Shown piece by piece: positions 4,692 through 10,055 of a stretch of 11,433 bases of DNA; the first letter of the stretch is position 1, and each line of letters starts with the position of its first letter. Below the pieces are notes generated by a model, which was not told where the DNA came from, searched no databases, and saw only the letters and a program-made list of their open reading frames with translations. The DNA comes from an uncultured Polyangiaceae bacterium (GTDB taxonomy: Bacteria; Myxococcota_A; Polyangia; Polyangiales; Polyangiaceae). The stretch covers positions 1-11,433 of the forward strand of contig CAYJPW010000251.1 of the NCBI GenBank assembly GCA_964372055.1, given 5' to 3'. Both the position numbers and the translations under genes were made by a program.

Positions 4692-6677
4692 TCAGGGCGG
4701 CGCGATGTTGTCGAGCGCCATCCCGCCGGGGTAGCCGTACGAGGTCGCGCTCGTGTAGCCCACCCCCACGATGCCGATGCCCGAGTTGCTGGTGATGACG
4801 TGGGGCCCGGCGGCGACCGCGTAGTCGGCCACGGTGTAGGCGCCGACCGCGTAGTAGCTGTTCGCCGGCACGGTCACGCCGTCGACCTGCACGGCGTCGC
4901 CCGTGGTGCGGATGATCTGGATGTAGTCGACCGCGTAGCCCGAGGGCGTGAGCACCACGTAGCGCGGCAGGAACTGCTCGACCGGCACCGCGGTGATCAT
5001 CGCCGGATCGCCGGTGCCCGCCCCGAAGGCGTCCTGCCCGCTGATGTACTGGTAGGCGGCGAACGGGTTCGAGCCGGTGAAGACGAAGCTCTCCTGCGTG
5101 TAGAACTCGTAGAACTGGCCCGCGTTCAGCGTCTGCGGGAAGCCCATCTGGGGCGGCGTCGTGTCGATCACCGTGCCGTCCTGCTGCGCCATCACCCGCC
5201 AGTAGTAGCGCTCGGTGTTGCTCCGCTTGGGGATGTGCGCGCCGACGTAGACCATGCCCCAGTTGCGGACGGGGACGGCCTGCTCCTCCATGTGGTCGCA
5301 GTAGGTGTAGCCGGCCGGGACCTGGGCGCACTCGACCGCGCCGAACACCGAGACCGGCGCCGAGGCGTCGATCTCGGCGCCCATCATGTCGCGCTGCATC
5401 TGGGGCGAGCCCGGGGCGTTCGCGACCTGGAGCGTGTCGTAGCGGTTCATCGTCACCGTGACCGTCTGGCCCGCGGCCGCGGCGACGACGCCGGCGCCGG
5501 CGGCGCTCGCGTTGGGCACCGTGAAGCTGACCGTGGTGTTGTTCTGCGTGGCGACGACGTTGAAGTAGCTCGGGTAGCCGCCGAGCGCGTCGTAGTAGCT
5601 CGGCACGAAGTAGTGCTTGCCGAGGGTCGCCTCGGGCAAGAGCACCGAGGCGTCGTTGGTGTAGTAGGGCGTGAGCGGCGAGTGCTGGTAGGCGATGACC
5701 GGCAGATCGCTCGCGACCCGGAACGCCCCGCCCACGCGGAGCGCCGTGCCGTTCTCGATGATGTCGCTCGCGGCGTTCGGCAGGTTCCAGGTGTACTGGC
5801 CGAGCGGCGGGATCTGCACGTTGCCCTGGAGCAGCGTCTCGACGCCGTTCGGCGAGCCGTAGAGGTTCACCACCGCGGTCAGCGTCGAGCTCGTGTTGCC
5901 GATGACGACCGCGTCCGCGTGCGCCTCGTCGTAGTTGTCCATGTTGAGGGCGAAGAACGAGCAGCCCACGCTCGTCGGGCTCTTGGCGTAGATCGCGCAG
6001 AGCGACTCGCAACCGATGCCCTCGGAGCACTGCTCCTTCGCGCCGCACGCGGCCCCGGGCACGTAGGCGGTCCCGTCGGCGTTGCAGATCTCGGTGGTCG
6101 AGTCGGTCGGGCAGTGCACCGAGCCCGGCACGCAGACCTGCGGCACGCACGCGCCGCCGATGCAGACGTCCCCGGCGCCGCACGGGGCCGGGGTGAAGCC
6201 GAAGCAGTCGGCGTTGCAGATCTGCTGCGTCTGCACGTCGACGCAGGCGGCGCCGGGCGCGCCGGGCGTGCACACGCAGTCGGCGCACTGGCCGGTCCCG
6301 ACGTCGCAGCCCTGGCCGGCGGGGCACGGCGCCGCGGTGAACACGCCGTTGTCGCAGACCTCGTGCACGCCGTTGGTGCACTGCTCCTCGCCGTCGACGC
6401 AGCCGGGGCCGCCGCCGCTTCCGCCGGTGCCGGTGCTGGTGCCGGTCGTGCCGCTGCTCGTCGTGCCGCTGCTCGTGGTCGTCGTGCCGGACCCGCCCGT
6501 CCCCGTGCTCGCCCCGCCCGTGCCGGTGGCGTTCCCGCCGGCGCCGCCCGAGCCCGTACCTGACGTCGTCGAGCCGGTGCCCGTCGATCCCGGCGAGGTC
6601 TCGTCGCCGCTCGAGCCGCACGCAGCCATGAGCACGAGACCGATCCCGACCGATGCAGCGAGGAAAGCGAAGCGCAT
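4692..6677 (-). CDS. Secreted lipoprotein with a Thr/Gly/Ser-rich linker, Cys-rich EGF-like repeats and a C-terminal FCGBP-N-terminal-like ('IgGFc-binding') domain
   Basis: ATG is at 6677 (cat 6675-6677) and is preceded on the minus strand by GGAGG (cctcc 6683-6687) with a 5-nt spacer. The N-terminus MRFAFLAASVGIGLVLMAAC(G) is a signal peptide with a lipobox-like Cys. A ~75-aa T/G/S low-complexity linker follows. Next come ~140 aa of repeated C..G...C....C modules (CVDGEEQCTNGVHEVCDNG...). The final ~420 aa begin 'GCSFFALNMDNYDEAHADAVVIGN' and include 'LPVIAYQHSP...NDASVLLPEATLGKHYFV'. I recall these resembling the start ('FVTAFMQN') and internal blocks of the FCGBP N-terminal domain family. 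GC3 is high. Stop is tca at 4692-4694. Confidence 0.8.
   Translation of the reverse strand: MRFAFLAASVGIGLVLMAACGSSGDETSPGSTGTGSTTSGTGSGGAGGNATGTGGASTGTGGSGTTTTSSGTTSSGTTGTSTGTGGSGGGPGCVDGEEQCTNGVHEVCDNGVFTAAPCPAGQGCDVGTGQCADCVCTPGAPGAACVDVQTQQICNADCFGFTPAPCGAGDVCIGGACVPQVCVPGSVHCPTDSTTEICNADGTAYVPGAACGAKEQCSEGIGCESLCAIYAKSPTSVGCSFFALNMDNYDEAHADAVVIGNTSSTLTAVVNLYGSPNGVETLLQGNVQIPPLGQYTWNLPNAASDIIENGTALRVGGAFRVASDLPVIAYQHSPLTPYYTNDASVLLPEATLGKHYFVPSYYDALGGYPSYFNVVATQNNTTVSFTVPNASAAGAGVVAAAAGQTVTVTMNRYDTLQVANAPGSPQMQRDMMGAEIDASAPVSVFGAVECAQVPAGYTYCDHMEEQAVPVRNWGMVYVGAHIPKRSNTERYYWRVMAQQDGTVIDTTPPQMGFPQTLNAGQFYEFYTQESFVFTGSNPFAAYQYISGQDAFGAGTGDPAMITAVPVEQFLPRYVVLTPSGYAVDYIQIIRTTGDAVQVDGVTVPANSYYAVGAYTVADYAVAAGPHVITSNSGIGIVGVGYTSATSYGYPGGMALDNIAPP
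6421..6560 (-). repeat. Low-complexity GGT/GCC-rich tract encoding the Thr/Gly/Ser linker, including a perfect 15-bp tandem duplication
   Basis: 'cgtgccgctgctcgt' occurs at 6447-6461 and again, immediately adjacent, at 6462-6476. The surrounding ~140 bp are built from ggtgcc/ggtcgt/gccggt units. On the minus strand these encode ...SGTTSSGTTSSGTTGTSTGTGG... Confidence 0.7.

Positions 6678-10055: not shown

Follow-up and report, generated by a model that had tools for sequence, protein, structure and literature searches.

A putative FCGBP_N-domain lipoprotein gene and a major vault protein homologue gene are most likely chance neighbours in a single myxobacterial lineage

Eukaryotic MVP carries about nine vault repeats in an N-terminal array, assembles into a 78-mer particle, and has vault RNA, TEP1 and vPARP as partners. 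We know of no bacterial MVP homologue that has been shown to form a vault particle. Here, we describe an 11,433-nt stretch of contig CAYJPW010000251.1 (hereafter "the window", meaning the whole stretch; G+C content ~72%), in which a gene for an 845-aa MVP homologue (7518-10055, plus strand) lies close to a gene for a 661-aa putative lipoprotein (4692-6677, minus strand) with a C-terminal FCGBP_N domain (IgGFc_binding in Pfam); our focal interval, 4692-10055, spans the two. Homologues of MVP have been described in Plesiocystis pacifica (two copies), Corallococcus, Microscilla, Saprospira, Flexibacter and Herpetosiphon, with horizontal gene transfer discussed in either direction, and the docking competence of other bacterial homologues was predicted in silico only (Daly et al., 2013; PMC3762200). 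They are also found in Myxococcales, Cytophagales and Oscillatoriales (cyanobacteria), have a Band-7 signal, and are enriched in gliding bacteria (Sokolskyi, 2019; bioRxiv 10.1101/872010); phage copies of MVP have been described in a 2023 preprint. The FCGBP_N domain was defined in a study that contributed the model for what became Pfam PF17517, and 564 of the 974 member proteins were bacterial, mostly from Bacteroidetes and Deltaproteobacteria, Myxococcus included, with 103 in a single myxobacterium, Labilithrix (Lang et al., 2016; Mol Biol Evol, PMC4948705). The same study tied the domain to gliding bacteria, reported its absence from fungi, plants, protists and archaea, found it at the N-terminus of most proteins that carry it, and proposed that its members are secreted or extracellular. 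Binding to IgG Fc was not observed for native human or mouse FCGBP, or for a human N-terminal construct (Ehrencrona et al., 2021; PMC8267560). Thus, both FCGBP_N and MVP are already documented in bacteria, and their presence here is an ordinary finding.

A first-pass annotation of the window, made from the sequence alone, noted the closeness of two domains usually thought of as eukaryotic, and offered three accounts of it: old eukaryote-to-bacterium transfers that were retained together, families that are native to this lineage and under-appreciated in bacteria, or a functional relationship between a surface adhesin and a giant particle, for example in export or display. We conclude that the two genes are very probably functionally independent Myxococcota (probably Polyangia) genes that are neighbours by chance, in one lineage only. 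The nearest relatives of both proteins bear names such as Polyangiaceae, Polyangia, Myxococcales and Nannocystaceae, which places the organism in Myxococcota.

The pairing of the two genes is confined to the window's own lineage. We collected 34 independent MVP loci with 471 kb of flanking sequence, three from protein look-ups, 30 from a scan of reference genomes (with two duplicates removed), and one, L044, with an orthologue 80% identical to the MVP homologue of the window. A hidden Markov model (HMM) built from 32 members of the lipoprotein family, which recovered all known members with E-values below 1e-260, had no match in the flanks of any of the 34 loci, L044 included. For the 28 MVP loci with at least 3 kb of upstream sequence, the 95% upper bound on the linkage frequency is ~10%. 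From the other side, there is no gene with a Vault or MVP_shoulder domain within 10 kb of the lipoprotein orthologue at four independent loci (L001, L002/L003, L004-L006 and L045; 63-79% identity). The MVP gene of L044 has a Ser/Thr-kinase/AAA_16 gene and an unrelated 260-aa gene as its neighbours. Among the other genes of the window, those for a 162-aa protein, a universal stress protein (Usp) and an M23 peptidase do not recur near any other MVP gene examined, and the hybrid kinase of the window has only generic histidine-kinase similarity to genes near other MVP genes. Because the pairing is absent from all related genomes examined, the adjacency is most likely coincidental. Such closeness is expected by chance, since one of the two families is hugely expanded in myxobacteria; with 103 FCGBP_N proteins in one myxobacterial genome, chance adjacency of an FCGBP_N gene to any given gene should occur occasionally. 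Both families are present in Plesiocystis pacifica SIR-1, such that their co-occurrence at the genome level is visible in public data.

The 845-aa protein was correctly recognized as an MVP homologue in the first-pass annotation. Its ATG is preceded by GGAGGG, and its Pfam matches are to MVP_shoulder (PF11978; E=2e-21, residues 524-630), which was found in 52 of 52 orthologues, and to Vault_3, which matches once only (E=4.2e-8, residues 473-514; it scores 33.6 bits, the cutoff being 28.8); the Vault model PF01505 matches 20 of the 52 orthologues. A sequence search of the PDB returned MVP chains exclusively, with E=8e-16 for the single sequence and 3e-23 for a profile of the 52 orthologues. The alignment is collinear from residue 466 to residue 795 (MVP 466-827), covering repeat 9, the shoulder and the cap helix, with a further weak collinear match to repeats 6-8 (residues 218-355 to MVP 275-411, or 214-347 to 275-409). 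From N- to C-terminus, the protein comprises a putative repeat region (residues 1-520; 7518-9077, plus strand), supported by the Vault_3 match, the PF01505 matches of orthologues and at least four copies of a motif, '..V.D/N..G.....GP....', at residues 17-39, 224-245, 330-351 and 471-492; an SPFH-like shoulder domain (residues 524-630; 9087-9407, plus strand), for which AlphaFold2 (AF2) gave a predicted local distance difference test score (pLDDT) of ~80-90; and a predicted single alpha-helix of 139 residues (residues 635-773; 9420-9836, plus strand; pLDDT ~70-90) that aligns with the cap helix of MVP. Eukaryotic MVP (rat, 4V60/4HL8; human, 9BW5) has the collinear order of repeats, shoulder and cap helix that is predicted here, in a chain of 861-893 aa, but the window protein is only ~18% identical to it and has a single repeat model above the Pfam threshold.

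An alternative reading of the 845-aa protein is that it is a membrane-microdomain scaffold of the SPFH/flotillin type, sharing the shoulder domain with MVP without being a vault-shell protein. Indeed, Foldseek matched its predicted structure to flotillin, HflK/C, prohibitin and stomatin (E=3e-6 to 1e-3), Pfam Band_7 matches 18 of the 52 orthologues, and the lone Vault_3 match would fit such a protein. However, MVP chains take all of the top 12 places among the Foldseek matches in the PDB (772-897 aligned columns; E=3e-14 to 6e-11), and the SPFH proteins trail them by about eight orders of magnitude in E-value; the profile is collinear with MVP across repeat 9, the shoulder and the cap helix, with a weak match over the middle repeats; and the N-terminal 470 residues carry the recurring vault-repeat-like motif where SPFH proteins carry a membrane anchor. 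Moreover, we found no signal peptide, transmembrane segment or other hydrophobic segment in the protein, the maximum hydropathy over 19 residues being 1.25. We therefore consider the SPFH scaffold unlikely, and treat the protein as an MVP orthologue.

As an MVP orthologue, the protein resembles the bacterial homologues of Plesiocystis pacifica (A6FXM1 and A6FXE2) and Enhygromyxa salina (A0A0C2D5V5) in its length (~840 aa), its shoulder and its long C-terminal coiled helix. The Band-7-like signal and the distribution of its family likewise match those of described bacterial MVP homologues; there is no substantive difference from them, and the window adds one more orthologue. A search with the protein found more than 4,281 relatives at E<=1e-5. 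Those among the matches listed are 66-80% identical to it and come mostly from Myxococcota metagenome-assembled genomes (MAGs), many named as Myxococcales, Polyangiaceae, Nannocystaceae or Kofleriaceae, and orthologues are labelled 'major vault protein' by JGI. Relatives at 43-49% identity in reference genomes are from MAGs assigned to Microscillaceae, Chloroflexota, Vulcanimicrobiota, Synergistia and Bacillota. By homology with eukaryotic MVP and SPFH cages, we propose that the protein would be a cytoplasmic scaffold, orthologous to the MVP that is widespread in Myxococcota, whose shoulder and long helix may drive lateral oligomerization into a large cage or ring. There are no domains suggestive of TEP1 or vPARP in the scanned genes of the 11.4-kb window, the sole region searched, and no Rfam family, vault RNA included, attains its gathering score in the window.

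Two observations bear on how widely MVP is distributed among bacteria. Seven loci (L023, L028-L030, L032, L033 and L035) encode MVP homologues with 46-49% identity in MAGs assigned to Caldilineaceae, Anaerolineae, Vulcanimicrobiota, Synergistia and Bacillota; the bacterial range of MVP looks broader than published, with several of these phyla absent from the MVP literature cited here. In addition, contigs assigned to the gammaproteobacteria Candidatus Achromatium palustre (L016) and Achromatium sp. WMS2 (L038) encode MVP homologues 66-77% identical to the myxobacterial protein, which could reflect recent horizontal transfer from Myxococcota or could be contaminating contigs.

The FCGBP N-terminal-like domain that was suspected in the lipoprotein is also real. 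A Pfam scan matched PF17517 to residues 342-638 of the 661-aa protein (4764-5654), with E=4.1e-75 and a score of 253 bits, far above the cutoff of 25.6; the match takes in positions 1-295 of the 297 in the profile, and both sequence strings on which the suspicion was based are present in the translation ('FFALNMDN' at residue 241, and 'VIAYQHSP...NDASVLLPEATLGKHYFV' at residues 327-357). The gene sits in a long open reading frame (ORF; 4692-6989, minus strand), in which the PF17517 match corresponds to residues 446-742; the likely start is at 6677, with GGAGG 6 nt 5' of the ATG. The gene model 4692-6677 is identical on a public 166-kb metagenome contig (ENA ERZ13692942 NODE_110), whose first 11,433 nt are the window, and the ORF, ribosome-binding site, Pfam match, contig gene call and orthologues all support it. 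Orthologues at 58-79% identity are labelled 'IgGFc-binding protein' by NCBI, as are the Nannocystis paralogues. We found 319 homologues of the domain; the genomes of Nannocystis punicea and N. bainbridge each encode several, and others are in Plesiocystis pacifica, the lipoprotein belonging to a family with multiple paralogues in these two genera; all but one of the lipoprotein homologues among the matches listed bear PF17517.

The N-terminus of the protein, MRFAFLAASVGIGLVLMAAC, is a predicted signal peptide with a lipobox-like LMAA|C (residues 1-20; 6618-6677, minus strand), in which Cys20 is the candidate lipidated residue and is invariant across 32 homologues; the highest 19-residue hydropathy, 2.17, starts at residue 3. 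The lipobox motif suggests that the protein is a lipidated lipoprotein, and that its location is on the surface or secreted. The signal peptide is followed by a low-complexity linker rich in Gly, Thr and Ser (residues 21-91; 6405-6617, minus strand; 27 Gly, 21 Thr and 15 Ser among 71 residues) that is predicted to be disordered, with pLDDT <50 over residues 1-89. Beyond this lie three Cys-rich repeats of ~45 residues, laid out by eye (residues 92-228; 5994-6404, minus strand; 21 Cys), which have no Pfam or NCBIfam match and are modelled by AF2 as small beta-hairpin modules (pLDDT 86-96); an extra Cys lies just beyond them, at residue 239. Distant members of the lipoprotein family have PF11617 in place of the Cys-rich repeats. 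The remainder of the protein is a conserved region predicted to be compact and all-beta (residues 230-661; 4695-5990, minus strand; pLDDT mostly >90), and contains the FCGBP_N domain, for which we found no solved structure.

In several respects this protein is like the bacterial FCGBP_N proteins described previously (Lang et al., 2016): it has a near-full-length PF17517, is predicted to be secreted or on the surface, belongs to the Deltaproteobacteria/Myxococcota, comes from a paralogue-rich family, and has none of the VWD, C8 or TIL domains, PF17517 being the only match in its Pfam scan. Unlike most of those proteins, it carries FCGBP_N not at the N-terminus but at the C-terminus, behind the lipobox, the linker and the three Cys-rich repeats, and it has none of the partner domains described for bacterial members (PKD, CHU_C and SprB). 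With human or other vertebrate FCGBP, a protein of mucus, it shares only the ~300-residue N-terminal domain family PF17517; it lacks the VWD-C8-TIL units and the GDPH autocleavage sites, and so is no orthologue of FCGBP. We propose that the lipoprotein would be an exported, lipid-anchored envelope protein that presents three Cys-rich modules of the disulfide type, together with an all-beta, FCGBP_N-type domain of ~430 residues, outside the cell on a flexible Gly/Thr/Ser stalk. Its architecture and weak structural analogies suggest that the FCGBP_N domain would bind an extracellular ligand or surface, possibly polysaccharide; IgG is not a predicted ligand, and the Pfam name 'IgGFc_binding' should not be taken as a function. 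The lipoprotein would be one member of a large, paralogue-rich family of bacterial surface proteins.

The lipoprotein and MVP genes are divergently oriented, with 841 bp between their start codons at 6677 and 7518, in agreement with the ~840 bp given in the first-pass annotation. Both are real genes at the coordinates proposed, but the interval is not a two-gene interval: a third gene, encoding a conserved 162-aa protein and called on the source contig, lies in the gap (6859-7347, plus strand), upstream of the MVP gene and co-oriented with it. The sequence points to a real, conserved family with an uncharacterized domain, with 606 representative clusters at E<=1e-3 (241 at the stricter E<=1e-10), mostly single-domain proteins of ~160 aa. 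The protein has no significant match in Pfam, NCBIfam, PADLOC or PHROGs, and we detected no homologue of it in 35 MVP loci (before removal of duplicates) or in L044.

Several points weigh against chance proximity of two independent genes. The flanks are short at some MVP loci, and only at 19 of the 34 do both reach 3 kb or more. The HMM used to search them describes the lipoprotein subfamily (down to 26% identity), and very divergent FCGBP_N domains could be missed by it. On the MVP side, AF2 modelled the N-terminal half poorly (pLDDT <50) from an alignment of sequences at least 66% identical, too poorly for the vault repeats to be counted. Lastly, the pairing is stable within its own lineage: an identical MVP protein is found on 23 contigs from many samples, with the same layout in the two contigs shown. 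This stability would fit a lineage-specific, co-regulated pair, which we consider very unlikely. We give equally little credence to an extended form of the same idea, in which the lipoprotein, 162-aa and MVP genes are a newly formed co-regulated unit in one uncultured Polyangia-like lineage; if that were true, MVP assembly and a surface FCGBP_N protein might answer the same signal, such as surface contact or gliding. No sigma-70-like promoters were detected in the divergent region, a scan that is uninformative at this G+C content.

A stronger claim, that the FCGBP_N lipoprotein and an MVP particle cooperate, for example in the export or display of an adhesin, and are co-regulated from a shared divergent region, appears highly improbable and is largely refuted by the missing synteny. 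The 841-bp separation and divergent orientation would permit shared regulation, the arrangement is identical in the two contigs shown for the lineage, with the identical MVP protein on 23 contigs, and each of the two families has separately been noted as enriched in gliding bacteria (Lang et al., 2016; Sokolskyi, 2019). Nonetheless, the partners are unpaired at all 34 MVP loci and all four lipoprotein-orthologue loci, even the 80%-identical MVP orthologue has other neighbours, and an unrelated conserved gene separates the two genes in the window. Furthermore, the predicted export signals of the two proteins differ: the lipoprotein bears a Sec/lipoprotein signal of its own, and so would need no special exporter, whereas the MVP homologue has no membrane or export feature. 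Given the 103 FCGBP_N proteins of Labilithrix, an occasional chance adjacency is to be expected, and we continue to favour functional independence of the two genes.

Both genes have a composition native to their locus, as the first-pass annotation had stated for codon usage. We compared composition across 14 genes in a 20-kb locus. The G+C content at third codon positions (GC3) is 0.980 in both the lipoprotein gene and the MVP gene, versus 0.978 in the flanking kinase gene and 0.926 in the 162-aa gene, and the codon-frequency distances of the lipoprotein and MVP genes to the rest of the locus (0.036 and 0.033, respectively) are among the three smallest of the 14. Tetranucleotide distances for windows covering 4-9.9 kb are 0.135-0.164, versus 0.08-0.139 elsewhere in the locus, and so are at the upper end of its range; this mild deviation is plausibly due to the segments coding for the Gly/Thr/Ser linker and for the Ala/Glu/Arg-rich cap helix. 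We rejected the possibility of a compositional island, since codon usage and GC3 are native and the tetranucleotide deviation is only mild.

Transfer of one or both genes from a eukaryote, with the two kept together as an island, is barely credible: both domains were first defined in animals, transfer from eukaryotes was held possible for bacterial MVP (Daly et al., 2013), and the tetranucleotide distances are at the top of the range for the locus, but GC3 and codon usage are indistinguishable from those of neighbouring genes, MVP identity falls from 66-80% in Myxococcota MAGs through 43-49% in other phyla to ~18% in eukaryotes, the reverse of the pattern that a recent origin from eukaryotes would give, bacteria account for the majority of FCGBP_N proteins (564 of 974) and fungi, plants, protists and archaea have none, which a bacterial origin fits at least equally well, and elsewhere the two genes are not inherited together. 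Taken as sequence comparisons, these data argue against recent eukaryote-to-bacterium transfer. The suggestion that the families are native to this lineage holds up, given the thousands of MVP relatives, the multi-paralogue lipoprotein family and the codon usage; the companion suggestion that they are under-appreciated does not, since both are already published and labelled. We propose that two families named after animal proteins would be ordinary, vertically inherited components of Myxococcota, and that 'eukaryotic-looking' domains close together in a myxobacterium are to be expected by chance.

The remaining genes of the window were identified from ORFs, Pfam matches and the gene calls of public contigs. 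The M23 peptidase gene is at 591-1865 (minus strand), and a gene for a hybrid kinase with PAS, HisKA, HATPase and receiver domains is at 2011-4581 (plus strand). A hybrid kinase gene also adjoins the lipoprotein homologue in L004-L006; we rejected conserved linkage of kinase and lipoprotein, since the kinases are only 28% identical, share generic domains and are not orthologous. Directly 3' of the MVP gene, ~100 nt away on the same strand, is a gene for a tandem Usp (10123/10156-11010, plus strand; two Usp domains, E=4e-39), an arrangement that does not recur at the other MVP loci examined. There were no PADLOC or PHROGs matches that would associate the window with defence or phage.

At other MVP loci, different genes adjoin MVP. 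Next to the closest MVP orthologues (73-77% identity), a conserved gene of ~190 aa in L009, L012, L013 and L020 starts 4-15 nt 3' of the MVP stop codon on the same strand (L009:12587-13162, L012:12587-13168, L013:10820-11419 and L020:12586-13152), and the corresponding gene called in L010 (L010:12532-13101) overlaps the MVP stop codon; all of these lie outside the window, which has no ~190-aa gene and has the Usp gene at that position. The ~190-aa protein has two invariant H-x-T-x motifs ('HHFTVFG' and 'PPPPHVTLYT'), which we take to be reminiscent of 2H phosphoesterases/LigT. This is an idea at the level of motifs, and we did not adopt the assignment, as Pfam, NCBIfam, PADLOC, PHROGs and the PDB gave no support for it. 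Were the protein a 2H-type RNA phosphoesterase or ligase, it might give bacterial MVP a partner linked to RNA, in a way that recalls vault RNA. In L029, L030, L032, L033 and L035, a gene of ~600 aa lies 200-800 nt upstream of MVP on the opposite strand, and is a lineage-specific conserved neighbour. Lastly, genes of the type VI secretion spike type (Phage_GPD/VgrG and DUF2169-pentapeptide) are found at L010:15248-22396, where the cluster additionally includes PAAR-like and DUF3540 genes, and at L045:15710-21893; they lie ~3-4 kb from the MVP orthologue in L010 and from the lipoprotein orthologue in L045, a proximity that is probably coincidental.

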